A stretch of DNA of 64,000 nucleotides from assembly GCA_026770705.1 (NCBI GenBank), contig JANJGN010000016.1, forward strand, positions 44,950,001-45,014,000. Reading direction: 5' to 3'. Source of the DNA: Isurus oxyrinchus (taxonomy: Eukaryota). The notes under the pieces are model-generated. The model ran no database searches. It saw only the letters and a list, made by a program, of their open reading frames with translations, and was not told the origin of the DNA. The position numbers and the translations under genes were made by a program. Numbering within the stretch: position 1 is the first letter of the stretch; every line of letters starts with the position of its first letter. Shown here one piece after another: positions 10,419 to 59,575 of the stretch.

Positions 10419-11454
10419 TTGTGCTAGAAAAGATTCTGAAGAGGTTATAGTATTTCCAGATGCTGAGTCACTTCATGGCAGCCTCAGTGTCACAAGCATC
10501 AACAGCTGCAACCAAAACCCTTGAAGGATCAGTGCATAGCTCACAGTTTCTCAGGTACTGAACTAAAGGTTAGACAGATGAGGATGTGTAAGGAAGGCTT
10601 GTTGAATGATTACTGGAAGTGAACCAGTTTTGAGAAGCGAACAATGGTGTTGGTGTTCCCAACATGGAGAGATCAGTGAGTCTGTTGCCAAGATTTGTTG
10701 TTTACTGGATCCAACAGTGAGAAAATTCCCGAAAATGGATATCTCTAACTGGCACCTCTCTTTGGCTGGTACTGATCATTCACATATGAGACAAAGAGGA
10801 GGAGAAGGGTAATGATTATGAAGAAGAAATCAGTCTCTTAGCCTCTGGCAAAGAATCTTCTCTTTCACTCCATGCATTACTCAGTTGCTTTTTTCTGCTC
10901 GCCATCTAGGTGATTTTCACCCAGAAGCTGAAGTTAGTGAGATGAAGAATTAGCACTGGGGTATTCACAATCCACTAAGGAACCAGACCACTGGGGAGTG
11001 AAGGAAAGGCTGTGGAGGCATCCACCCTCAGCTGAAAAGACAACAGATTCAAATCTCAAGGGTCTTCTCTGAAAATATTAGCATTGTACACAGGCACTGA
11101 AATCCAATTCCTAAGAAATGCAGTGGACACCAGTGAGTGCTTTCTTAAATGGCACCATTTGGGTAGCATTTTTTCTCACAACAAACATCAGTAGAGTGTA
11201 TGGCATCTTCATTGTGATCTCCAACCTCTCATCCAGGTGCCTCCTTTTTATAAGAAGGCTGTAGCCCTTGAATCTTTGGGAGACAGAGATAATGGGGCAC
11301 CCTATTCCCACTTTCTCTTGTTGGTTTACAAGAGATCCTTCTCAGCGTTTTCAGTACTTTGTTCTAAGCATGAGACCTGTCATCCTGCTGATCAGTGACC
11401 ATTCTTAACCTGTAGCTAGCACCTTTGACACAGTGAGGCTCCTCCAACATTAAT

Positions 11455-11650
11455 AATAGAAACAGAAAATGCTGGAAAAGCTCAGCAGGTCTGGCAGCAT
11501 CTGTGGAATGAGAAACAGAGTTAACATTTCAAGTCTGTATGGCTCTTCTTCAGAGCTTCATCTCTCCACAGATGCTGCCAGACCTGCTGAGCTTTCCCAG
11601 CATTTTCTGTTTTTATTTCAGATTTCCAGCATCCGCAGTATTTTGCTTTT
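11455..11650. mobile_element. Short palindromic non-autonomous element derived from a Penelope-like 3' end
   Basis: Inverted arms aaacagaaaatgctggaaaagctcagcaggtctggcagcatctgtgga / tccacagatgctgccagacctgctgagctttcccagcattttctgttt; the arm matches 59245-59338. Confidence 0.8.
11519..11557 (-). ncRNA. Minimal type I hammerhead ribozyme motif (partly decayed)
   Basis: Reverse complement AGCT CTGAAGA A GAGCC ataca GACTT GAAA TGTT AACT: CUGANGA and GAAA boxes present, stems imperfect. Confidence 0.65.
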
Positions 11651-12655
11651 ATCTCCTTCAGCATTATGCAGCTGTCTCCAGGATGTAGCTGCCTTCTTGC
11701 CAAGCCTGACTTAAATAGCAAGTAAGAGGCGGGGCCAGGCTGACCTGGCAGGTGGAAGAGAGATACAGTCCCCAGGCGGTTCCTGCAAGTTTCAGTTGCC
11801 ATAAGGCAGAAGGCCCTTGAGACTCTTGGTGATGCAGAGAGCTGACCACCTCTCACAACATTGGCTTCAGGTTACAGTTGGAAGAAGCACTAGATATGTC
11901 ATAGAAAAATGCACCTAGGCATCCAAAGGAAGCATAGTGATTGACTTATAGGGGAGATGTCCTCAAGAATAATAATCAAACTGATGTTGCTGTATTCGTT
12001 GGCTCTATTGTTCAATGAGCTCATTAGTTTCCTGAGACCTGGTTTGGGTCTAGAGGTAGGATATTTTGTGAGGCTGAAAGACAAATATTTTCACATGAAA
12101 GAAATAGAGCAGCTTAAGGAGATGCTGTGACAGATCTGTAGTCAGTGGAGTGATGTTATCAAAATGAAAATATATGATTAATAATCAACCTATATTTTCT
12201 CTGGCAGCTGGGACAGTAACCTCCTCTGAATTAAGAACATCCACATGTTGGCTTCCAAGTGTCCTCACCACCACATAAGCTGGACTTTCCTTCTCTATTG
12301 ATTCCAGTACCAATCCTTTAGAATTTCAAATTTATGTATGGCACAGCAAGCAACCACAATAGGAGTCTCATATCTGCTAGGTATTTCCCTGGAATATCAT
12401 TAATGTTTTACTGCTACCGATTCCATTGAGATGCTACAAAACCTCCAATTCAAAAATATTTTATTATGTCCCCCCACAGTGAGCTATTGTTAATAATTTG
12501 TAGATTGCCATATTGTATACAACACAACACAAAATTTAAAACCAAAAGCTAATTGTACACACCTGTTTTGATATGTCTACAATGAACATTTTCCTCTTTC
12601 CTACAGTAAAATGTGCATCTGCACTTATCTGCATCAACATGTTTTTATTTTTTAG

Positions 12656-12709
12656 GCCGAATACACCTGGATTGTTGAGTTAAATAGTGCAATACAAACT
12701 ACCAAGTAG
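12656..12709 (+). other. Candidate exon AEYTWIVELNSAIQTTK* (PH-domain C-terminal-helix-like)
   Basis: Strong acceptor gtttttattttttAG; W-I-x-x-L-x-x-A-I pattern followed by a stop. Confidence 0.3.
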
Positions 12710-13039
12710 AATCTTCCAGACCACCTTAGAATATGACTGCGGAACCTGGATTAAACTAACATGAAAGTACGTTAAAGCTACATAATTTACACCTAGTGCC
12801 AAATCCAAAATGCAAGTTTTTCATTGACTTTTTCAAACGTGTTTGTATGTTATAGGGGAATGATGTATTGGTTCAGTTTGTGCTCTGCTGATGTGTCGGT
12901 GTCTTGCCTGCCTAAGGGGTGTATATAGTACCTGGCAACATATAGCTAGATGTCTTCTGAATGGCAGTGACTGGAAGAGGGTAATAGGTGCTTATATTAA
13001 TGTTCTTGCCATTATATGATCTTAATTTTAATTTGTCCA

Positions 13040-13935
13040 AGGGATGCAGATGTCACTGCCAGTACCGTTAGGGATGGAGTTTCAAAATTTTGACCCGGCG
13101 ACATTGAAGGCTATATTTTCATCATGGTAGTCTGTGACTGGAGGGGGATCTGCAGGTGGTGATGTTTCCTTGTCCTTCTAGGTGGTAAAGGTTACAGCTT
13201 CAGCAGATGCAGTCAAAAGAGCCTTCATGTATTGCTGCATTACATCTTGTAGATCACTGTGCACTGGTGGAGGAGGGAATGAATGTTTAAGGTGGTGCTG
13301 ATCAAATGGCTGCTTTTTCCTGGTTGGTGCGGGGCTTTTTTAATGTTGTTGGAACTGCGCTCATCCAGGCAAGTGGGAAATATTCCCTCACACTCTTGAC
13401 TTCTGACTTGTAGATGGTGGACAGACTTTGGGAAGTCAGGAGGTGAGTCACTCAGGGCAGAATTCCTAGCCTCTGACCTGTCCTTGTATCTTCAATACTT
13501 ATGTGGCTGGTCTGTTAAATTTTGGGTCAATGATGATCCCCAGAATGTTGATGGTGCGGGATTCAGTGATGGTAATGCTATTGAATGTCAAGGGGAGATA
13601 GTATTCTCTCTTGTTGGAAATGTTCATCACCTGGCACTTGTGTGGCATGAGTGTGACTTGCCACTTATCAGCCCAAGCCTGAATGTTGTCCAGGTCTTGC
13701 TGCATGTGGGCACAGATTGAATCAGTATCCGAGGATTTGCAATGGAACTGAAAACTGACTGCAATGATCAGAAAATATCAGCAATATGATGGAAGGAAGG
13801 TCATTGATGAAAAAGTGAAAAAAGGTTAGGCCTAGGACATTACCCTGAAGAAGTCTTGCAGCAAAGCCCTGGAGCTGAGATTTATGGCCACCAACAACTA
13901 CACCCATCTTCCTTTGTTCTTAAGTATTACTTCTG
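13040..13935 (-). mobile_element. CR1-group LINE family B, RT to 3' end, decayed
   Basis: QGNVLGLT..FINDLPSI; MQQDLDNIQAWADKWQVT..PHKCQVM. Confidence 0.9.
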
Positions 13936-15339
13936 CCAGTATATATTAAAGTCCTTGGTATCATATGGCTGACTTTAGTGGTGGTCTACTAATGGACTTC
14001 CTCCACTGATATGGAAAATTTGATTTTGAGGCCTTAGAGTATCGATTCCAAACGCAGCAAAGGTGCACTTCTGTGATAATCTAAACAAATAAGAGCAGCA
14101 CACCTTCCCTTCCTTATTGAACACTATGGTGATAGTTCAATACTGGCAGTCTCTAGCCACGTATCTTATCATTATCTCTGTAGGACTACTCCTCCACATT
14201 ATTTAAGAATGGAGCTTACTGTATCACTCAAAATCTTGCAATGTACTAAAAAATAATAACTGCAATGGGAATGGAAAAATATATATATTTAGATCCTAAA
14301 GGCTTAATGCCCATATTGTTAAAAGGAACTCTGTTTAACGTTGTCAGTTAATTATATTTTTAAATGCAGTGTAATGTGGCAGGGGAAATTAGAGAATTAG
14401 GAACCCTCCCTGTCCTGTGAGTTCAGAATTGTTATTAACTTGCCCTGTATTCATCAAATTCTTACTAGTAAGAGTAACTTTGTGTTCTAGATTCTATTCC
14501 CCAGAAGGTGGATACCCTGATTTATGCTACACCTCTTGGCTCTTTCAAATTTAAACCTGACAGTAAGCCAAAAGGTCAAAAAAGCACAAAATAGGTCGCA
14601 GACACCACTGATTAATTCCTCTTCAGAGAAAAGAGTGTTTCAAGTTTAGCCACAGACCTAGATGTCCTTTTACTACTGGCAGCCACCTAGGCCTCAATAA
14701 CACTCATAAAATTATGAAATGTATCCAAAAAACACTCAATAACCACAATATATACTCTATCATTAATGTTAAGAATTAAAAATTACAATGCACTAACATA
14801 AATAACATCATATTTAAAGTACAACTTTTCTCAGAAGTAGATTATATTTCACATCAAAAAATAATAGCTACCAATGAAGGTATCAAAATATAATTATGAA
14901 AGTAATGTGTCACCGTTAAATTAAAGGAGATTATGTAATGGATTATCAGCTAACAGGCTAGAAGAAATACTTGCTGTTGCAATGTGCATGAGGATAAACA
15001 TGGCATTTAGATTCATAAACCTCAAATTTCAAAATCTTAATCCAAAGTTTATTAGTATGCAAATACATATTACTGCCATTAGACCAGGAAATGCAAATGT
15101 ACATCAGTCTGAAATTAGATGGCCTCCCTCTCCCTTTCCCCCAGCCTTGGAGACTCAACTGGAGGACAGCCTTTAGTCTGCCAGCCAATGAGTACATACA
15201 ATCCCAGTCAGTTGAAAAGACCTTTTACTAGCATAAAGCAACTAGCAGATTACAATTAAAGTGTGTACCTCTTTCTGCTACATTAGTATACCAACGAAGT
15301 GGTTTGTACTTTGAAGCTAATGTTACTCTTAGTTCCACT

Positions 15340-15483
15340 TTAGCTGATTTGATTGTAAGAGAATCTCCATCAATGGATTCTTTGCTCCTGCACATTACTT
15401 CTGGAATCTTCCAAGGACCTATCCTATGCCCTCTCCACTTCCACACTTAGATGCTGCCCCTTGGCAACCTCATCTGAAGACAC
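15340..15483 (+). mobile_element. L2 RT fragment
   Basis: SGIFQGPILCPL..MLPLGNLI, close to GVPQGSILGPLLF..MLPLGxII. Confidence 0.6.
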
Positions 15484-15629
15484 GAGCCAGGAAATCCGGA
15501 AGTGGGATGCTAACTGTACAGTTCAGGTAAAGAGCCATGGAAAAGTCCACTGCAGGCCTCAATGAGTTCCTGATCCACTACAGGTCCCATTGTTTCGGCA
15601 GGAAATATCAGTTTAAGATTCTGCAATGT

Positions 15630-15943
15630 CTCCACTTGTGAGAAGAGCAAAACTAGAGGCCATTCACTGTAAGATATTCATTAAGAAATCCAATAGGAAA
15701 TTCAGAAGAATCTTCTTTACCCAGAGAGGGTTAAGAATGTGGGATTCACTACCACAGTGAGTGGTTGAGACAAATAATATGGATGCATTTAAGGGATGGC
15801 TAAATAAACATTTGAGAGAGAAAGGAATAGAGGTCCATGCTCATCGAGTTAGATGAAGAAAGATGGGAGGAGGCTGAAGAGCAGCACAAATGCCAGTATG
15901 AACTGGTTGAGTTGAATGGCCTGTCTCTTTGCTGTAATTCTAT
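15630..15943 (+). mobile_element. CR1 3' end
   Basis: ttctttacccagagagggttaagaatgtgggattcactacc and CR1 3'UTR ending gctgtaattctat. Confidence 0.8.
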
Positions 15944-16608
15944 GGGCAGGATTTTAAGTCCATTGGGCGGGTGTGCACCCGACCTGGTTGGGTATAAAAT
16001 CTGGCGTGATGATGTTGGGTGAGCGTCCCGGTGTCATCGCGCACTCTCGCGACCATTCAGTTGGCGGGTGCACGTGACAGTTGACAGCATGCCTGCTGAC
16101 AATTAAGAGGCCTATTAAGGCCCTTAAACTACTAGTTAAGTTGTATTCTTTGCTGCCCGCTCAACTGTTTGGTTGGCGGTCGGGTGGGCGAATAGGCCAG
16201 GCGGCCTTTGCATTTTTTACAAAACCTCATCCACGGGCAGGATGAGGTTTCCAATGGTAAGTAAAAAACTCAAAAAAAAAGTCACATGTCACGTGGGGAC
16301 ATGTTTATATCATTTATTAAAGTTTTATTTTCTTTTGTCCAAATCTTCAGCTCCCTGAGGCAGCTCTGTGCCCTCAGGGAGCTGTCAGCACGTGCTCCCC
16401 CATGCATACGCAGACTTCTGCACTTGCCCTCCTCCCTCCCCCACCCCAGTAGCGCTGAGGTTCTCAGCATGCCTTGCACGCTGGCTGGCTGTTAATTGAC
16501 CAGCCAGCATAAAATCGTGGTTGGTGCTCGTTTGCGGGCGGTGATCCGTTTCGCGGCTGCTCCCAGGCCCGCCCGTTGCATCCACCCGATGAAGTAAAGA
16601 TCCTGGCC
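15944..16608. mobile_element. Harbinger-type MITE (hairpin subfamily)
   Basis: TIRs gggcaggatttt / aagatcctggcc; TSD TAT/TAT; internal hairpins aaacctcatcc-N7-ggatgaggttt and ctccctgagg..cctcagggag. Confidence 0.85.
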
Positions 16609-17921
16609 TATGTGTATAGAAGTGAAACTGCAGAATATACATCAGAACACATTTAGACAATTACACACGTCAGTTTTAGGTGCACAATTAGGTATAGATT
16701 ACTGGAAAACTGACAATACAGCTTTCATATTAAAACAACCAATAAAGAGTCTAGCTTTGTGCTTCAATTGACGTAAAAAAAATGTGTCACAAGAGCACAA
16801 ATCCATTACTGAGAAAACACAGTCGATTTAGTCTTATTTTGTGGTCACTCGATGATTGCACCGCAGCAGTTTAACTCTCCATGGATACAGAGTGCAGGGA
16901 ATTAAATCCACACTCAATCATTTGTTCAGCCAAGGACTATTGCATTAATAAATGTGACAATTTCTCTAATGTCATTGCAACCACTCAAGCAACGTTGGGA
17001 CTTGGAATTATATTGACCCTTCAGGTCAAATGTGTTTAAGAAATGAGTTGGTGAGCCTCACCAGCATCAATTTATTCACAAATAAACAACTAACCATTTC
17101 AGAGCAGCTACTTCATAGCTTAGAAAGATATTTAGTTCTACCACATTACAGATACACTAGCTATTTCCAGTTCATTCAGGCAGAATTTATACCCCAGCAC
17201 AACATGCAGCCAGCTTTGTGGTTTGCCACTGCAGCAAATGGAGTATTTGTTCTAAGTGCAGCAAGGATCATCTTTGCCTTGCCTACCATGTGGAAGCAAT
17301 TACATGGATTTTCTTTTATTCTGCATTGGAGGAAAATGGATGTAACTTTAAAAAATAAACAGCGTATAGGTACATATTATATATGATATATTTAAAGTTC
17401 AAGAGTTATACCTTGCTGAAACTCTCTATATCTCAAGATATAGGCATGTACGGTTCACAGTGGTAGGATGGGGACCTTAAACTGATGTCATATTTGTCAT
17501 CTTTTAGAGGGCTGCCATGGACTCGATGGACTGAATGGATTCCTTTCGCGCTGCAAATGTTCAATGATTCTATGGAGTAATCCTATAAGATTATAAGAAG
17601 GAATTGGAATAAGATTGGTGCAGGAAGAAAGCAGAGCCTTGAGGATGCAAGGTTCAGTCAGGCAATGGTCACTGAAGTGATTAATATACAGCAGCTCAAT
17701 GCCTCCAATCTTTGTGGCTGCTCTGGCCTAAGACTTTTGCTGCCCACTTCACACAAAAGCCTTCTGGACACTCAAAAAGTTCGACGACAGTTTAAATAAA
17801 ATTAAAAATATTAAACCAAAGTTAGCTCAACAAGAATCCTCATTCTTCAAACACCAACTGGAACATCATGCCAGCCTACTTTAAACCTGATTTTTGCTAA
17901 TTGCCGAACAGAGGTGCTTAC

Positions 17922-18001
17922 TTTGAGCTACAATCAAACTGGACGACAAAAATGTTAATTATACATAAACGCTCTGTAATTACTGCACACCAGGCTCTGT
18001 G
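17922..18001 (-). other. Candidate exon (HRAWCAVITERLC...)
   Basis: Acceptor ttggttttcAG, donor GTAAGC; 80 nt, open in phase 0; product not recognised. Confidence 0.25.
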
Positions 18002-18596
18002 CTGAAAACCAAATGCTTCTTGCTGATTGACAAGGCTTCAAAGGGCACAATAATCCTTCCAGAATTATTATTTTGGAATAATTATTTGTTTTTGTTGGAA
18101 ATGGTATGCACCTTTGAGAGGAAAAATACATCATAATGGATTACTATATTTCAAAAGTAATATTGTTTTAGGCAGCCAAAACAGGTTGTGCATCAGAAGT
18201 ACAAAAAAATGTAAATAACCACATCTTTCATTTTCAGTGGAACATCCTGTGGTATAGAGACCAACCAATGGTTATTGAAAGCTTTCAGTGTGTTCAAACA
18301 TGTCATTGTTTGAAGCATTAATCCAGAAAATGAAATGCAAAATAACAGGAAGGCTCAACATGTTGACACTTTTTTGTTCCTAACATTGATATGAGTATTA
18401 TTTTTAAGAAAAGACACTTAGCTGCAAACCAATCAATGCTTAAAATTCTACCATTTTACTATGCTATTCTCCATGTGAGCAATATAATCTTGTGGAGGTA
18501 TAATTTTGCAAAAAGACTATTACTTAGAATACCTCATCGCAGGAGATCCCGAAGGCTAAGAATAACATTTGGCTAACTCAAATAAATTATATCTTC

Positions 18597-18947
18597 AAAA
18601 AGTGCTGGAGAAATTCAGCAGGCCTGGCAGCATCTGTGGGGAGAGAAACAGAGTTAATGTTTCGAGTCGAATATTCTTCTGTGGAACAGATGTTGAGTTC
18701 TGAAGAACAGCCATATTCGATTTGAAATGTAACTCCGGCTCTCTCCACAGGTGCTGCCAGACCTGTTGAGTTTCTCCAGCACTTTACGGGCAGAATTTTA
18801 TGGCTCCGTTTCAGTGGGGATGGGACTGTAAAATGCGGCGAGACATTCTAAACCTCATTGGCTTCAGCGGGAATGTAAAACCCCGCTGTCGTAAAATTCT
18901 GCCCATTGTTTTTATTTCCACTTTCCAGCATGTGCAGAGTTTTGTTT
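18597..18947. mobile_element. Penelope-derived palindromic element with hammerhead-like motifs on both strands, interrupted by a mini-MITE
   Basis: Inverted arms 18600-18655 / 18731-18786; central motifs at 18652-18687 (-) and 18696-18734 (+). Confidence 0.8.
18788..18904. mobile_element. 117-bp Harbinger-type mini-MITE
   Basis: Perfect TIRs gggcagaatttta / taaaattctgccc; splits the host element's cagcacttt|tgtttttattt. Confidence 0.85.
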
Positions 18948-19884
18948 CTAAATTACACCTTCCTTTGTGTGATTGACATTACAAGAATTTGCAAAGCACC
19001 AAACTAACTACATTCAATTGATTAAAAGAATAATAAAAAGAATAAAAAGAAAATGGTATGATCATTAGAAAGGAATCTGTGATGTCCAGATATTAGGGAA
19101 AGTAAGTAAAACTTTCAGAAATTTTGTAAAGACTGATAGGTCCCACAATCAGTGGCCAGAAAAGATCAGTTATATTGCCAAAATTTTCACAGGGTCGATA
19201 CAGTAAAGCAGAACCCTGGCCTCAAATTAATTCATCAACTGTGAATGTCTGAAACAAATGAAGGCAGGAAACCATAGAGTACCTCCCGCTAATGAGTTAT
19301 TTCAATACATTGGCTGAATGAGAGAAAGGTAATTAGCTACCTCATCACTTCCCTTTAAAAGAGACTTTCAGTGAGATAATATGAGAAAGGTATTAATTCA
19401 TTATAAGTTGAGGTGCTCTGGATACAAATATCCTATGGTTTTCAGACTCAGAGTCTTGTTCCTCTGTTGTAAACAAACAGTTCCTTCTCTTACATAAATA
19501 AAAAGACAAATAAGCATTAAGTGCAGTGCTACTTTGACAGATGATCAGTACTAGCACATTGCACAGCTGAACAATGGAATTCAATTCCTCATGTGGCAAG
19601 TTCCCAATCTCATCTGTATAATGTGCAGAGGCAGCAAACTGATGGTAGTGGGATGGGAAATCATGCTGCTTTCATACACCTCCCAGCAACCAGCTCAAGG
19701 CCCTGACAGGAATCTGGGGCTTTTCTGTCTTCTGTATCGGTGAGGGACAAAAGAAAAACCAAAGGAAAAGTAAAAAAATTATAGCCAGAGGGAGGAAGTG
19801 GTATTTTATCTCAGTAATTCACAACAAATTAAATTCATAAACAGGACCATAGTACAAAAAAAAGCTGTGTTAAAATGTTAAAAA

Positions 19885-22800
19885 GAGAATCTAAAGGCAC
19901 TGTATCTGAATGCATGGAGCGTTCACAGTAAGGTAGACAAATTAACAGCGTGAATAGATGTAAACGGGTACGACATGATTGCGATTATAGAGACAAGGCT
20001 GCAGGATGACTAAGGCTGGGAACTGAAATCCAAGGGTATTCAAGATTTAGGAAGGACAGACAAAAAGGAAAAGGAGGTGGGGTGACATTGTTAAGGACAA
20101 ACTCAGTGCAATAGTGAGAGAGGATATTGGTTTAGAAAATCGAAATGTAGAATCAGTCTGGTGGAGCTAAGGAGCAACAAGCAGCGGAAAAACATTTGGT
20201 GGGAGTTGTCTATAGGCCTTCACGCAGTAGTGGTAAGGTAGGGGATGGCATTAAACAGGAAATTAGAGATGCAAGTAACAAGGGTGCTACAATAATCGTG
20301 GATAACTTTAATCATATTGACTGGGCAGACCAGGTAGAATAATACTGTGGTGGATGAAGCCCTGAAGTGGCAAATGAGATGGTTTTTTAGACCAGAATGT
20401 TGAGAAACCAATTAGGGAACAGGCAATCCTAGATTTGGTATTGTGCAATGAGAAGGGGTTAATTAAAAATCTTGTTGTGCAGGGTCCTTTAGGGAACAGT
20501 AACCATAACATGGGTTGGCTAAGATAGATTGGAGAACTTCATTAAAAGGTGGATAGGCAATGGCTAATATTTAAGGAATGAATATATGCATTGCAACAGT
20601 TATACGTTCCTTTCTGTTGCAAAAACGCAAAAGGAGAAGCAGCCCAACCATGGCTAACAAAAGAAATTAAGGATATTATTAGATCCAAAGAGGAGTCAAA
20701 TAAATTTGCTAGAAAAAGTAGCAAGCCTGGGGATTGGGAGCAGTTTAGAATTCAGCAAAGGAGGACCAAGAGATTGATTAAGAGGGGAAAAATAGAGTAT
20801 GAGAGTAAACTTGCAAGGAACATAAAAGTGGACTGTAAAAGCTTCTATAAGCATGTAAAAAGAAAAATATTAGTGAAGACTAAATGTAGGTCCCTTGCAG
20901 TCTGAAATAGGAGAATTCATAATAGAGAACAAGGAAATGACAGAGAAATTAAACAACTACTTTAGTTCTGTATTCATAGAGGAAGACACAAATAACTTCC
21001 CAGAAATGCTAGAGAAATTATTGGGACTGAAAGCCAATAAATCCCTAAGGCCTGATAATCTACATCCAACGTACTAAAAGAGGTGGCCATGGAAATAGTG
21101 GTTGTCAACTTCCAAAAGTTTGTAGATTCTGGAGCAGTTGCAGATTGGAGGGTGGCAAATGTAACTTCACAATTTTAAAAAGGAGGCAGGGGGAAAACAG
21201 GCAATTATAGACCAGTTAGCTAACATCAGTGGTAGGGAAAATGCTAGAGTCTCTTATAAAGGATGTGATAACAGGACACTCAGAAAATATCAATGGGAAT
21301 AGACAAAGTCAACATGGATTTATGAAAGGGAAATCATGTTTGACAAAGCTACTGGAGGTTTTTGAGGACATAACTTGCAGAATAGATAAGGGAGAGCCAG
21401 TGGATGTAGATTACCAGGCCTTGGAGATTTATTGGCTTTTAGTCCCATTAATTTCTCCAGCACTGTGTTCTTAATAATACTAATTTCCTTCAATTCCTCC
21501 TTCACACTAGACCCTTGATTCCCTAGCATTTCTGGGAAGTTATTTGTGAAGACAGAACTAAAGTAGTTGTTTAATTGCTCTGTCATTTCCTTGTTCTCTA
21601 TTATAAATTCTCCCATTTCAGATTGTAAGGGACCTACATTTGTCTTCACTAATCTTTTTCTTTTTACATGTTTATAGAAGCTTTTACAGTCCACTTTTAT
21701 TTTCCTTGCAAGTGGGTGTGGTGTATTTGGATTTGCGAAAAGCTTTTGATAAAGTCCCACATAAGAGATTAGTGTGCAAAATTAAAGCACACGGGATTGG
21801 GGGTAATATATTGACACTCATTGAGAATTGGTTAGCAGACAGGAAACAGAGAGTAGGAATAAATGGGTCTCTTTTGGAATGGCAGGCAATGATTAGTGTG
21901 GTATCGCTTGGGCCCCAGCTATTCACAATATATATCAATAATTTGGATAAGGGAACCAAATGTAATATTTCCAAGTTTACTGACGACACAAAACTTCATG
22001 GGAGTGTGATTGGTGAGGAAGATGTTAAGAGGCTTCAAACTGATTTAGACAAGTTGAGTAATTTGGGAAATGCATGGCAGATGCAGTATGACGTGGATGA
22101 GTACAAAGTTATCCACTTTGGTAGGAGAAACAGAATGGCAGAGTGTTATTTAAATGTTGATAGATTGGGAGATGTTGATGCACAAAGGGACCTGGGTGTC
22201 CTTGTACACCAATCACTGAAAGAAAGCATGCAGGTGCAGCAAGCAGTTAAGAAGGCAAATGGTATGTTGGCCTTCATTGCAAGAGGACTGAGTACAGGAG
22301 CAAGGATGTCTCACTGCAGTTGTACAGGGCCTTGGTGAGACCGCACCTGGAGTACTGTGTGCAGTTTGGTCTCCTTACCTAAGAAAGGATACACGTGCCA
22401 TAGATGGAGTGCAGCGAAGGTTCACCAGACTGATTCCTGGGACGGCAGGATTGTCGTATGAGGAGAGATTGGGCCGACTAGGCCTATATTCACTGGAGTT
22501 TAGAAGAATGAGAGGGGATCTCATTGAAATGTATAAAATCCATCAGGGCTGGTACAGACTGGGTGCAAGGATGATGTTTCTCTTGGCTAAGGGGTATAGT
22601 GCAAGGGACCACAATCTCAGGATATGAGGCAGGCCATTTAGGACTGAGATGAGGAGAAACTTATCCACTCAGAGGGTGGTGAACCTGTGGAATTCTCTAC
22701 CACAGAGAGCAGTGGAGGCCAAGCCACTGGATATACTTAAGAAGGAAATAGATTTCTAGACTCTAAAGGCATCAAGGGGTATGGGGAGAGAGTCGGAGCA

Positions 22801-22892
22801 TGGCGTTGAGATAAAGGATCAGCCTTGATCACACTGAATGGTGCTGCAGGCTTGAAGGCCTGAATGACCTACCCTATTTTCTATGTTTCTAT
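19885..22892 (+). mobile_element. CR1 LINE ORF2 (APE endonuclease + RT) with 3'UTR, decayed, with an internal inverted segment
   Basis: LKALYLNA; QPWLTKEIKD; QSQHGFMKGKSCLT; VYLDLRKAFDKVPH; SKFTDDTKL; tail ttctatgtttctat. Confidence 0.95.
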
Positions 22893-23701
22893 GGGTGGAA
22901 TCATCCCAGATTTGCACTATGTGCAGTAGCAGGTGGGAAAAAGAACGTTTTACCCATCGGCTGCAAAGGTGGCTTTTCACCATATCATCCCAATCCTGCC
23001 TCTTTAATCATGCTTTCCCAGGAAATATGCCAAGTCATTGGCGGGGCATCCTCTCATTTGCCCGCCTCGCTGTCACATCAGGCCTTCAGTAATCCAGGAA
23101 CCATACTTAAAGTGCACCCCTGCATAGAGCTAGCACTCTCTAAGGCATCAGAAGCTGCTGCAAAGTCATGGCTGCCAAAGGGAGGAACCATGCTGCCCCC
23201 AGATTTAGCAATGCCTTACTTCAGCACCCACTGGATCCTCCTTCTGTGACCTTCCACCTTCTGTGAGCTGCTTTGCGGAGGAGCCATATTCACAAGAATA
23301 CAGCCAGCATGCGATACACATTCCTCCAGGCTTCCATTGCTGTAGGGCCATGGCATCTTCTGCTCCTGAGATGTCTGTGATGTGAGCAAGGCCCTGCGGG
23401 GTAACTCTGCACATAAACGTTGTGAAGGTGTGTTCTGTACTGGAGTTTTCCCGCCGACCTGGGCAGAAAATTTGACGTAGAGGGATGATCCCGGTGAGCT
23501 GGGCTCATAATTAGATACAGATGTTTTAGAATTAAGTTCCTGACGTGCAGCGGTGGGAAATGCGCCCGCCATTGACAGGCAGTGCGGATGATTGTAAACT
23601 GATTTCACAACGGTGTGAAACCAATTTTTGGCCTTCCCACCACATTGTCTGCTCACGTCCGCTATGACATCTGATGCCAATGGACACCGAAAATTCTGCC
23701 C
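22893..23701. mobile_element. Harbinger deletion derivative / MITE
   Basis: TIRs gggtggaatc / aaattctgccc; TSD TAT/TAT; contains Myb start MAAKGRNHAAPRFSNA at 23168. Confidence 0.8.
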
Positions 23702-38700: not shown

Positions 38701-39302
38701 CCTGCAATGATAGCAAAGTTTAGCTCTCAGCTCAAAATATCAAAAGGACATAACAGCAGTTATCCTCCTTATATAATGTTTCACAGTAACTATGAATGTA
38801 TATACTTTACACCTGAATCAGATCAAAGTGTTTTTTTGGAAAATATCTAAACCAATGCAACCATTGCTAATTAACTGCCCAATTTGATGACTCACCACTG
38901 CTGTGAATTGTTTACAAAGGTAACATAATTATTTTTATTCTCCCCAAATCCTCTTATGGTGACCGTTTAAAGCTGCTCTGCTGAGGCAGACTGCTGTGAT
39001 AAATTCAATACAACTGTAGGACATGTTGCCATAGGAATATTATGTTCTTTAAATGCAACAAATTTAAATTATTTAATATTATTTAACACATTTACATCGC
39101 ATGTTCTTGAATACAAATAAATAAAAAAGCTGTTTACAAAAAGTTAAAGTGAATGAACTTTTGTTTGCCTAATCTATCCTATGAAATGTAATATGCAAAT
39201 ATTTTAATTGTAAGATCATTAAAGTGCATCATAAAGAATTTAATTAATTCAATTATAATGTTACTTGCTTTGAGCCAAGTGTCAATGGGACATATAAGCA
39301 CT

Positions 39303-40372
39303 TGGAATAAAAACAGAATATGCTTCAAATATTCAACAAATATTGCAGCATCTGTGGAGAGAGAAACAGAGTTAATGGGTTTGATTTAATCTCTGTGCAG
39401 GTCAATGGATTTGGAATGGGTTAAAATCACAGCCAATAGGCTGGATTTTGACACCCACCCCCTACCCCCCTCTGCCGAGCATGGTTTTAGTGGAGTGGAA
39501 CATAAAATATGATGGGTGGCTAACCCACTGCCATCCAGCCCACCCCCAACCTGATCCTCATAAAACAGTAGGTTGGCAGGCGCCAAAATTGGCAGCCTGA
39601 CTGCCATTTAAAAAATAATAATTAATAGGCAATTGAGTTTGTTTACAGGCCAGTTGACCCAAATATTATGTTGCTCACTCCATAATACATTTGGTGTGGG
39701 CAGACGGGTGGAAGTGTGTAGATTGTTTTTTGTTAACCAAACTGGTTAAAAAGCAGGCAGGAAAATGGTTATGTCCTCCAGGGATGCCCTGCACAACAAG
39801 GGCACCCCTCCAAAGACGTTTCCCCTTTGCCACTTCCCAGCTGGCCACCAAAACCCACCACCCCAACCTCCCATGCCCACCTCCCTAAGCTTCCTAATAC
39901 CCCCCTGTCCAATACCCCCAATTTACTGTTTCCAGGATCCATGTTGCCTTCATCCTACGGCCTGGTTGCAGTCCCAGTACTACCTACCACTGAGTTGAAG
40001 CATTGCTGGGGCTGTTAGAACTGCCAGCCAATCAGATTATCCAGCAACTCTCAAGGGCGGGACTTCTTCCCACTGATGGGCACCAACTTAATGGCCACCT
40101 GGAGGGCATTATGGTTGTGGGACGGCCTTATTTAACATCAGTTGGCTTGGGACCGACGTTTCTTCTGAGGGTTTGTACACCCCTCTACCCTTCCACCTCC
40201 GTAAAATTCAGCCCCATGTTTCACGATGTTGACATTTTGTTGGAACCTGCACAAGGACCTGGAACTAGTTTTCTCTTTCCAAATCTGGTGCCAGACCCGC
40301 TGAATGTTTCTAGCATGCTATTTTCTACTTTTATATGTGATTTCCGGCACCCACTGTATTTTGGTTTTGTAT
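39303..40372. mobile_element. Decayed Penelope-derived palindromic element interrupted by a MITE
   Basis: gcagcatctgtggagagagaaacagagttaat | gtttc ... tgccagacccgctgaatgtttctagca. Confidence 0.7.
39377..40214. mobile_element. Harbinger-type MITE (opposite orientation to 6007/37681)
   Basis: TIRs gggtttgattta / taaaattcagccc; TSD AAT/CAT (1 mismatch). Confidence 0.75.
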
Positions 40373-41569
40373 GTCAAAACTTGGCTCTGTTACACCGAGT
40401 GTTTATTGGTTATGAAGATTGGTAATTATGCTTGAGCAGATTGCTTTTTTCCCCAAAGACTGGCCTTCAAAACAGGTTGTTTTTCTCAAAGAGTTTTATA
40501 GGCATAAAATTCCCATATAGTTAATATATCAGCAATTGGGTTGATCTAGCTAAGGTGTGTAGAGGTAGAATATGGACTTATAGGTTTATGTGTATGTATA
40601 CTTCATAAAACCTATATCCATTTTATTTGAAAAAGAATCCAGCTATTTCTAAGAAAACATCAGTTTTATCAAAGTTTTCCAGGAAGTTTCAAAGGACCTA
40701 ATTTGTTTAATTAGTCTGCTTAACCCTTCATGAACTATCACCAAGCATTTTTTTTGGATTGATGTCAACACCTCATTCCTACCCTTCAGACTTGGCCAGA
40801 TTTCATTTCTGAGTACCTGGGCTGTTTAATGTGGTTCTAACCACATATCTGAATTGACATGATGTCTAGTGGAATTCCTAATATCTTCAGTAACATAAAG
40901 GATTCATTATTCACTTGGAGCAAGGAATTTAACACACATCCATAACTAAGCATGGCTCTTCTAATACATTTATTATCTGTAGAACTCACCAGCATCCAGC
41001 ATTACACATAGAATACATTGCACTCTGCATGACCCAATACAAGGATAAAGTAACGAGCTAGTTGATTTATTGGTACTATGAAGCAGTCTCACTAAATTCC
41101 AGTATAATAACAGATGCTAAACACAGCATGCCAAGCAGGAGAATCGGGTAATTTTGAAGATGACTACAGCAGCTTTGCAGGAGGTTGGGGGAGGAGTAGG
41201 AGAATTTCTATTATTTGTTCTCACAGGCTGCTGTGCAAGCTAAGTAGCAATTTTTGTCTCATCAAATCATTATGACAGAATGCACATTTTGGGGAGCAGC
41301 ACAGTTATGTTTTAATGATGATGTGAGAGGTTTTAACAAAACAATTGAAATCAGGTCAGAATGACAGAATTGCAATGAGGGTTTATTGACAAATTTACCA
41401 AATTATACAAAAGAACACTCAATCCAATATTCTTTCAAGAACAGAAATTCTGATCTTCCTCTACAACACATTTCACATATAGAATATTCCCTAACAAGAA
41501 ATTCAGAGTGAAGCTTGGAGCTATGGTAGAAAATGAGCAATTTTAAGGAGAGTCAAGAAAAAAGGAAGA

Positions 41570-44734: not shown

Positions 44735-44858
44735 TCCAAAGAGACTTGAAACATTAACTCTGTTTCTCTCTCCACAGATACTACCAGACCTGCTAGGCTT
44801 TTCCAGCACCTTGTTTTTATTTCAGGTCTCCAGCATCCACAGTATTTTACTTTCATTT
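44735..44858 (+). mobile_element. Single arm of the Penelope-derived short element (3' half of the hammerhead motif)
   Basis: gacttgaaacattaactctgtttctctctccacagatactaccagacctgc. Confidence 0.75.
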
Positions 44859-45180
44859 CAGATACGAACCCTGGTCAATATTCTTTCCATAGCCCAGTGA
44901 GGACAATTGTAGTGCCCCTGTTGCTATTCAGATTAATTCACACTAATTTAAACAATCCAACGAACCAAGTAACTCCCTGACCTATACAGCTCAGTACCAC
45001 ATTTTCAACAAAATTGTTAGAATATTAACTTGCAGCTTTAATTTTTGAGATTGCATTTGTTGCGTGCAAGCTCCATTTTCCTTCCATAAAACTTTGATGC
45101 ACCAAACAAAAACAGCAATAACTTATGTTTATATAACATTAACACAGTAAAACATCCCAAGGCATTTTCATGACTTTATC

Positions 45181-57005: not shown

Positions 57006-59338
57006 AGATCCAACCCCAACATTGTCATCAAACTCACTGACAAGGGTGGTGCTATTGTTGTCTGGCGCACTGACCTCTACTTCGCGGAGGCTGAGCGTCA
57101 ACTCACAGATACTTCCTCCTACCTCTCCCTGTACCATGACCCCACCACTGAACATCAAGCCATTGTTTCCAGGACTGTCACTGACCTCATCCCCTCTGGA
57201 GATCTTCCTCCCACAGCTTCCAACCTGATAATCGCCCAACCTCGGACGGCCCGCTTCTACCTCCTACCCAAAATCCACAAACAGAACTGCCCCGGTAGAT
57301 CGATCGTGTCAGCTTGGTCCTGCCCCACAGAACTCATTTCTTGTTATCTTGACTCCCTTCTCTCTCCCCTTGTCCAGTCCCTTCCCACCTACATCCGTGA
57401 TTCCTCTGACACCTTACGTCACATCAACAATTTCCAGTTCCCTGGACCCAAACGCTTCCTCTTCACCGTGGACGTCCAATCCCTCTACACCTCCATCCCC
57501 CACCAGGATGGTCTGAGGGCCTTTAGCTTCTTCCTCAAACAAAGGCCCAAACAATCCCCATCCACCACTACTCTCCTCCGTCTGGCTAAACTTGTTCTCA
57601 CACTGAACAATTTCTCCATTAACTCCTCTCACTTCCTCCAAACAAAAGGTGTGGCAATGGGTACCTGCATGGGCCCCAGCTATGCCTGTCTCTTTATGGG
57701 GTATGTGGAACATTCCTTGTTCCAGTCCTACTCCGGCCCCCATCCACAATTCTTTCTCCAGTACATCGATGATTACTTCGGTGCCGCTTCATGCTCTCGT
57801 TGGGACTTGGAAAAATTTATTAATTTTGCTTCCAATCTCCACCCCTCCATCATTTTCACATGGTCCATCTCTGACACTTCCCTTCCCTTCCTTGACCTGT
57901 CTGTCTCAATCTCTGGTGATAGACTGTCCACCAATATCCATTACAAGCCTATCGACTCCCACAGCTACCTCGACTACAGCTCCTCACACCCCGCTTCCTG
58001 TAAGGACTCCATTCCATTCTCTCAGTTCCTTCGCCTCCGTCGCATCTGTTCCGATGACGCTACCTTCAAAAACAGTTCCTCTGACATGTACTCCTCCTTC
58101 CTTAACCGAGGTTTTCCACCCACGGTCGTTGACAGGGCCCTCAACCGTGTCCAGCCCATCTCCCGCGCATCCCCCCTCACACCTTCTCCTCCCTCCCAGA
58201 AACATGATAGGGTCCCCCTTGTCCTCACTTATCACCCCACCAGCCTCCGCAATCAAAGGATCATCCTCCGCCATTTCCACCAACTCCAGCATGATGCCAC
58301 CACCAAACACATCTTCCCTTCACCCCCCCGGCAGCATTCCATAGGGATCGTTCCAACTGGGACACCCTGGTCCACTCCTCCATCACCCCCTACTCCTCAA
58401 CCCCCACCTATGGCACCTCCCCATGCCCACGCAAAAGATGCAACACCTGCCCCTTCACTTCCTCTCTCCTCACCGTCCAAGGGCCCAAACATTCCTTTCA
58501 GCATTTCACTTGCATTTCCCCCAACTTAGTCTACTGCATTCGTTGTTCCCAATGTGGTCTCCTCTACATTGGAGAGACCAAACGTAAACTGGGCAACCGC
58601 TTTGCAGAACACCTGCAGTCTGTCCGCAAGAATGACCCAAACCTCCCTGTTGCTTGCCATTTTAACACTCCAGCCTGCTCTCTTGCCCACATGTCTGTCC
58701 TTGACTTGCTGCATTGTTCCAGTGAAGCCCCATGCAAACTGGAGGAACAGCACCTCATCTTCCAACTAGGCACTTAACAGCCTTCCGGACTGAATATTGA
58801 ATTCAACAACTTTAGATCTTGAACTCCCTCCTCCATCCCCACCCCCTTTCTGTTTCCCCCCTTCCTTTTGTTTTTTCCAATAATTTATATGGATTTTTCT
58901 TTTCCCATCTATTTCCATTATTTTTAAATCTTTTATGCCCTGATAGCCTTTCCACCCCACCCCCACTAGAGCTGTACCTTGAGTGCCCTACCATCCATTC
59001 TTAATTAGCACATTCGTTTAGATAATATCACCACCTTCGACGCCTCTGTGTTCTTTTGTTCTTTTGTCTGTGACATCTTTTGATTATCTGCTCCTATCAC
59101 TGCTTGCTTGTCCCTACAACCACACCACCCCCCCACCCCCACTTCTCTCCCCCTGTCCCACCTTAAACCAGCTTATATTTCACCCTTTTCCTAAGATTCA
59201 CTCAGTTCTGTTGAAGGGTCATGAGGACTCGAAACGTCAACTCTTTTCTTCTCCGCCGATGCTGCCAGACCTGCTGAGTTTTTCCAGGTAATTCTGTTTT
59301 TGTTTTGGATTTCCAGCATCTGCAGTTTTTTGTTTTTA
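57006..59338 (+). mobile_element. 5'-truncated Penelope-like element (RT + Cys linker + GIY-YIG endonuclease + 3' terminal repeat)
   Basis: DKGGAIVVW; FYLLPKIHK; DVQSLYTSIPH; GVAMGT; YIDD; CPRKRCNTC; VYCIRCSQCGLLYIGETKR..RFAEH; GLN; ends at TGA 58822; frameshift and stop near the 3' end. Confidence 0.95.
59204..59242 (+). ncRNA. Minimal type I hammerhead ribozyme motif in the PLE 3' terminal repeat
   Basis: AGTT CTGTTGA A GGGTC atgag GACTC GAAA C GTC AACT: stem I AGTT/AACT, stem II, GAAA box, palindromic ACGU stem III, GUC triplet; core differs from CUGANGA at one position. Confidence 0.75.
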
Positions 59339-59339
59339 T

Positions 59340-59575
59340 AGGTAGATCTGGGTGTTCCAAACATACACATGGAACCTGAAATTTTGATTTTTGATGATGC
59401 TGTCGAGAGGTAGAATGATGTTGAGAAATAGAAGGATGCCAAGGAATCTTTGGAGTCCTCTGGCGGTAACAGTTTGGGAGCAGCAAGAGAAACCATTGTA
59501 AATTACTCTTTGGAATGAAAAAATAAGAATGGAACCAGGAGAAGGCAGTGCCACCCAGTTGAACAATGGAGGCAG
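59340..59575 (-). mobile_element. L2 RT fragment
   Basis: LLPPEDSKDSLASFYFSTSFYLSTASSK; decayed GVPQGSxLGPLLF-like region. Confidence 0.5.

Follow-up and report, generated by a model that had tools for sequence, protein, structure and literature searches.

Hammerheads on opposite strands and inverted pLTRs with a one-sided tail have both been published already. In Schistosoma, minimal hammerheads lie on opposite strands 100-700 bp apart and are ascribed to truncated PLEs; minimal PLE hammerheads are reported to require a same-polarity partner, and even then to cleave poorly (PMC4209133). A PLE protein has been found in vitro to extend both strands of its target, starting at two RNA sites that lie on either side of the tail (PMC11167929). 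The pLTRs of rotifer elements are described as carrying TATA and Inr-like motifs (PMC3846280), and the promoter of D. virilis Penelope as TATA-less and internal (PMC2377424). A Zn-finger-like motif between RT and EN is given as a Neptune trait that is shared with Nematis (PMC8557442). For retrozymes, the tables of a preprint include chondrichthyan families (bioRxiv 10.64898/2026.07.22.740005).

The window analyzed here, a stretch of 64,000 nucleotides from Isurus oxyrinchus, contains a fold-back at 18597-18947 that the original prediction had delimited as one element. This locus is a real, old, and decayed inverted-pLTR insertion of a known kind. It very probably represents a single old insertion of two short PLE terminal-repeat copies, which stand head to head within a 14-bp target duplication (TSD) and likely were formed on the spot by an enzyme priming on both strands of the cut site. 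The left TSD (18583-18596) agrees with the right TSD (18949-18962) at 12 of 14 positions, a score equalled by 1.5% of 3000 random stretches of the window. Because this duplication encloses the whole predicted span, the fold-back is one insertion. Its tail-less, inverted pLTR arm (18597-18687, minus strand) begins at the hammerhead 5' edge and matches the PLE 3'-end model (nhmmer, E 5e-19). The 8-nt insert at the center (18688-18695) is unique to this copy, as a genome-wide pattern search allowing up to two mismatches returned only the insert itself and one other match that is not a fold-back; it resembles a motif of its own arm and may be a templated end-joining insert. The tail-bearing arm (18696-18785, plus strand; nhmmer, E 2e-15) begins at the putative transcription start, and its remainder lies at 18907-18948 together with a PLE tail of 30-35 nt that matches the tails at 11608 and 59295. 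The left arm has no tail. Between the two parts of the right arm lies a later, nested insertion of approximately 120 bp (18786-18906) with terminal inverted repeats of 12-14 bp, which we take to be MITE-like. Its relatives occur in 7 of 113 blind loci (see below), and one of them (L169:3967-4085) is 88% identical. Longer elements with the same termini also exist, for example L103:6457-7090. As the nested element separates the right arm from its tail, the predicted 351-bp span is composite.

The near-symmetric inverted repeat noted in the original prediction was confirmed by folding. Positions 18597-18785 are a true inverted repeat, whose arms share 82% identity and whose plus strand reaches a minimum free energy of -121 kcal/mol (z -14.5; 0 of 200 shuffles were as good); the corresponding values for the minus strand are -104 and -14.6. 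DNA-type contigs from three runs of two studies join the left arm to the unique sequence on its left, the center being uncovered at 98% likeness. Hammerhead-like motifs stand on both strands at the predicted places, but both are decayed. In the minus-strand remnant (18648-18687) three of the seven core bases are changed (U4, G5, and A6) and stem II has a 3-nt deletion. The plus-strand remnant (18696-18735) has intact core boxes, but it has lost the G10.1-C11.1 pair along with most of stem II, and its cleavage triplet is short by one base. Neither strand of the window copy passes a descriptor of the minimal (type I) hammerhead, and an Rfam scan of the window gave no match to the hammerhead families and three weak unrelated matches. 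The minimal type I hammerhead is present in the pLTR of family members. In the youngest PLE subfamily, whose copies are about 98% identical, core position 6 is U, not the conserved A, and the cleavage triplet is GUC; this combination was located in L213-L241, L242-L292, and at 59200-59260 of the window.

Further members of the family occur in the window. All three related copies predicted at 11455, 39303, and 44735 belong to it, but only the first is a fold-back (11453-11652). It has a different center and its own 14-bp TSD (11439-11452/11653-11666), and its plus-strand arm begins beyond the hammerhead. The others are single arms without a hammerhead core, one truncated (39298-39377, minus strand) and one with a tail (44736-44859, plus strand). 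Another single arm, decayed and tailed, lies at 40253-40373 on the plus strand; its combination with 39298-39377 into one interrupted fold-back was rejected, the TSD score being only 7. The plus strand also carries a 5'-truncated coding PLE of a younger subfamily at 57006-59345, with RT and GIY-YIG regions, a pLTR, and a tail. Its frames contain the RT motif and the endonuclease motif, and over 2.3 kb it is 91% identical to a near-full-length copy of the younger subfamily in a blind locus (L180:3799-7225). Other inverted structures were also seen, namely an inversion within a LINE fragment at 20809-21713 (arms 90-95% complementary), presumably CR1-like judging from its RT motifs, and a long inverted pair at 22183-22753/25470-26043 (73-77% complementary).

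The parentage of the arms was traced by a single-arm search, after which the shared upstream sequence of long arms was followed outward. The search returned solo arms, fold-backs, and arms that share long upstream sequence. These long arms extend upstream into frames with RT motifs, a Zn-finger-like CxxxxCxxC linker between RT and EN, and a GIY-YIG-type C-terminus. Pfam scores for RVT_1 (17.5 bits; curated cut-off 29.6) and GIY-YIG (20.8; 22.6) are both below threshold, and the domains stand in the expected order; a PDB sequence search with the RT-EN frame gave no match. A multi-kb inverted pair, L172, ties the older subfamily, to which the window copy belongs, to the RT. From these upstream frames, and as far as sequence can tell, the fold-back arms are pLTRs of an EN+ PLE with RT and GIY-YIG of the Neptune/Nematis type; Neptune rather than Nematis is our working assumption. 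The original prediction was right about the PLE origin, about the hammerheads being of the minimal type I, and about the inversion of the terminal repeats.

The population of copies was surveyed in the 4.98-Gb assembly. A blind sample comprised 113 stretches of 10 kb (1.13 Mb) at round positions of large contigs; seven targeted stretches were left out, and matches from a likeness search with the whole fold-back were excluded from the frequencies, being chosen for likeness. The blind sample contains 124 arms, 48 of which form 24 adjacent inverted pairs. The true number of pairs is at least this large, since a few arms counted as "unpaired" do have a partner, if a very short one. Extrapolated to the genome, the arms would number roughly 5x10^5 and the short fold-backs roughly 10^5; such fold-backs are very common in this genome. 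As an observation on counting, the same PLE junction repeats at a spacing of about 16 kb in G000:C1:257088911-257165293, a tandem segmental array able to inflate repeat counts. In addition, an exact genome-wide pattern search found 4715 young fold-backs that keep both cores, of which the first 50, all on C1, were inspected. One arm, and one only, carries the tail in 23 of the 24 blind pairs and in 46 of the 50 young pairs; no pair among the 50 has tails on both arms. When the 24 blind pairs were combined with 25 distinct matches from the whole-fold-back search, 34 of these 49 fold-backs had a TSD, compared with 6% of 2352 mismatched flank pairs; among the 50 young copies 44 had one, with a mode of 14 bp. 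The fold-backs measure between 156 bp and over 3 kb, and the series is continuous up to multi-kb fold-backs with RT inside. The blind sample also includes head-to-head pairs with arms of 0.4-2.2 kb, and the family contains both inverted 5'-truncated copies and partial tandems. MITEs and DNA fold-back transposons have symmetric ends and short, fixed TSDs; this candidate was rejected on the one-sided tail, the TSD of 13-15 bp, and the RT-linked arms.

The arm 5' ends, placed on the PLE 3'-end model, are unevenly distributed. The hammerhead 5' edge lies at model positions 560-580, and these 21 nt hold the 5' ends of 31 of 48 paired and 23 of 74 unpaired arms (54 of 122, two of the 124 arms having been dropped at locus edges and at least 2 of 32 "long" arms being misassigned). 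Only 8 of the 122 ends fall in the 110 nt upstream of it, and 5 (one paired and four unpaired) at the cleavage site (599-607). In 40 of the 50 long copies with an anchor, out of 61 given, a TATA-like box stands at -29 to -32 of the hammerhead edge; these copies are related, and the count lacks a shuffled control. The motif at the edge itself we assume to be Inr-like. The pile-up about 30 nt below the TATA-like box suggests run-off cDNAs from an RNA start, primed on both target strands. Together with the two-strand extension described for Anolis, it makes two-strand priming, run-off at the RNA start, and end-joining the best model. Staggered nicks about 14 bp apart would open the target. Reverse transcription would then be primed by the 3' end of each nick, at one or the other of the two internal start sites flanking the tail, with either the same RNA or a sister RNA as template. 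Many of the cDNAs would be 100-140 nt long when they run off the 5' end of the transcript, which would lie immediately ahead of hammerhead helix I, and the two cDNAs would then be end-joined with trimming or a short insert. Such a product has neither the upstream TATA-like box nor an ORF and so would be dead on arrival.

The longer copies complicate this model. Thirty coding copies were chosen by their 5' unique region; 21 of them continue upstream through the hammerhead and none stops at 560-580, so that simple run-off needs read-through, circular templates, or a strand jump to yield long cDNAs; on the coding side, only L182, L243, and L258 have a 5' end at the hammerhead edge. In five of the 30 (L215, L219, L228, L230, and L239) the 5' truncation falls where the tail region of the 5' pLTR ends, possibly a second hot spot for stops or junctions. 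The outer end of the tail-less arm is variable, about a quarter of 50 falling well short of the second start site. Comparison of the extra base at the junction with a cap-derived G gave 1078 G, 610 A, and 248 T, and most of the G cases listed can be explained by the partner arm. The pLTR of the young subfamily has a strong splice-donor-like site about 85 nt past the hammerhead 5' edge. A spliced or back-spliced template, with a donor-like site joined to an acceptor-like site at the hammerhead edge, was rejected, as the join has a single match genome-wide, which contains a mismatch; a shared first exon upstream of the short arms was not seen. Contigs guessed to be RNA matched positions 11000-23000 of the window as short, paralogue-like fragments only, which are uninformative about transcription of the fold-back. 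Tentatively, and with a little less than even confidence, we propose that a "double strong-stop" step in PLE transposition left the short fold-backs, approximately 100,000 in number, as its fossils in the genome. RNA would start at a TATA/Inr promoter at helix I; from the two sites bounding the tail, a dimeric enzyme would copy the 5' end of this RNA onto each strand of the target. Jumps of the run-off cDNA to the 3' pLTR, as in LTR elements, would give the long partial tandems, and re-mobilization as units may have affected a small minority of the fold-backs.

The two arms could also descend from each other if one cDNA or an antisense template snapped back and primed itself, the second arm being copied from the first and the hairpin opened later. 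Self-priming has been proposed for rotifer PLE palindromes (PMC3846280), and the variable tail-less outer end, several centers that are perfect palindromes, and the private variants common to both arms of one copy (21 of 64 non-CpG variants, against a shuffled mean of 2.0 and a maximum of 8) would fit it. However, the tail-less arm extends further into the center in 15 of 23 blind pairs, by at least 9 nt in 12, and so is not simply a copy of the tailed arm; with these center bases unique to the tail-less arm and the tail unique to the other, neither arm is a copy of the other. Snap-back is thus disfavored, and we regard it as unlikely. Still less probable is a non-autonomous family in the manner of SINEs or retrozymes, in which the whole fold-back is transcribed and then retrotransposed by means of PLE proteins as one unit, whether for all copies or a minority. 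Recurrence of centers is the best evidence for this idea, which the original prediction had put forward: the 50 young copies fall into 27 center classes, the largest with 8, 7, 7, 4, and 2 members. The tailed end would serve as a cis signal, and both cores are kept in the 4715 young copies. However, all 24 blind pairs have different centers, and the window center has no second copy. The older subfamily has 172 copies, the first 50 of which, sorted by eye, gave 40 classes; a 1-nt center is common to 11 copies and the remaining 39 differ. The recurrent asymmetric centers of the young copies are found in either direction with respect to the tail (4:2, plus one undetermined, and 4:3), lineage variants cut across the classes, and two same-orientation copies of one center differ in arm variants and outer end. 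The recurrent centers read as the simplest joins at a shared breakpoint, reached convergently. The TATA-like box, moreover, lies outside the unit. Fixed differences between left and right arms were not found across copies: identity is 0.822 between left arms, 0.821 between right arms, and 0.822 across, compared with 0.887 between the two arms of one copy, which agree in subfamily and private variants. A lack of fixed differences together with a match within copies is the picture given by fold-backs that form anew time after time, each event drawing on one RNA lineage. Gene conversion could also produce the variants in both arms, and centers can lose length after insertion.

A viroid-like ambisense RNA needs a foldable, intact ribozyme in each polarity. 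That both polarities of the fold-backs self-cleave and form rod-like circles is the least probable of these explanations and borders on the negligible. The rod fold is strong and young copies have hammerhead motifs on both strands, but the rod-like fold is a trivial consequence of inversion, and the motifs on both strands are its by-product. In three intact copies the rod is predicted to be 50-67 kcal/mol better than the hammerhead-shaped fold, and the single hammerhead per strand is predicted to be buried in it. Both arms pass the descriptor in 2 of the 49 fold-backs, and in none with the canonical A6. With one hammerhead per strand there is no unit-length release and no partner of the same polarity for a dimer, as minimal hammerheads are reported to need (PMC4209133). 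The back-splice-type junction is absent genome-wide apart from the mismatched match, and the 5' ends do not pile up at the cleavage site. Thus the retrozyme- or viroid-like reading of the window fold-back, as an ORF-less family amplified as a unit, is not supported: when genomic copies were compared for shared, fixed boundaries, their junctions varied, which on the genomic side is the outcome that the original prediction had itself named as speaking against it, and the convergent recurrences, the lack of fixed arm differences, and the continuity with RT-containing fold-backs point the same way.

The locus itself is ordinary decayed repeat DNA. Screens for viroid-like RNAs by "ribozymes on both strands plus rod fold" will catch such PLE inversion scars. 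The population of copies records PLE insertion in vivo, a step called unresolved in the literature; the record consists of a stagger of 14 bp, a pair of start sites, a single lineage behind both arms, and, at the hammerhead 5' edge, a sharp stop. The copies offer a precise site for 5'-end mapping, and the population-level breakpoint is a modest but testable clue to the mechanism. A literature search, which covered few subscription papers, found no description of the family or of run-off at the hammerhead edge.

Among described systems, non-LTR retrozymes resemble the fold-backs in being small, ORF-less, related to pLTRs, and hammerhead-bearing (PMC7229834; bioRxiv 10.64898/2026.07.22.740005). 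As described (PMC7229834), they are head-to-tail tandems whose same-polarity hammerheads yield circles, whereas an inverted pair with one hammerhead per strand is found here. This candidate was rejected, since head-to-tail, same-polarity units and amplification of a unit of fixed structure, by which retrozymes are defined, are lacking. The dual minimal hammerheads of Schistosoma are similar in their type I form, the extra base at 9-10.1, the palindromic 15.2/16.2 positions, and their location on opposite strands, but the reported spacing is 100-700 bp compared with 0-15 nt in the vertebrate-type family here, and the U at core position 6 of the youngest mako subfamily differs from the hammerheads described there (PMC4209133). 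Anolis PAc (Poseidon) likewise has two internal RT start sites, one on each side of the tail, and cuts and extends both target strands in vitro, and in the account of that system, as here, there is no sign that hammerhead cleavage defines the ends (PMC11167929). The mako element differs from PAc in its zinc-finger-like linker of the Neptune/Nematis type, and the run-off point at the hammerhead 5' edge described here was not found in that account (PMC11167929). The closest likeness is to inverted-pLTR insertions of EN+ PLEs, such as Pen2a_Av of Adineta (PMC3846280) and Penelope of D. virilis (PMC2377424; overview in PMC8557442, Fig. 2), which share the inverted, 5'-truncated copy placed head to head, the tail of 30-40 bp at one end only, the TSD enclosing the unit, and the TATA/Inr-like motifs of the pLTR. 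Compared with these insertions, the TSD is about 14 bp here vs. 8-10 bp in the rotifer examples (PMC3846280), the mako halves usually measure only 100-140 nt, and their extrapolated copy number is about 10^5.
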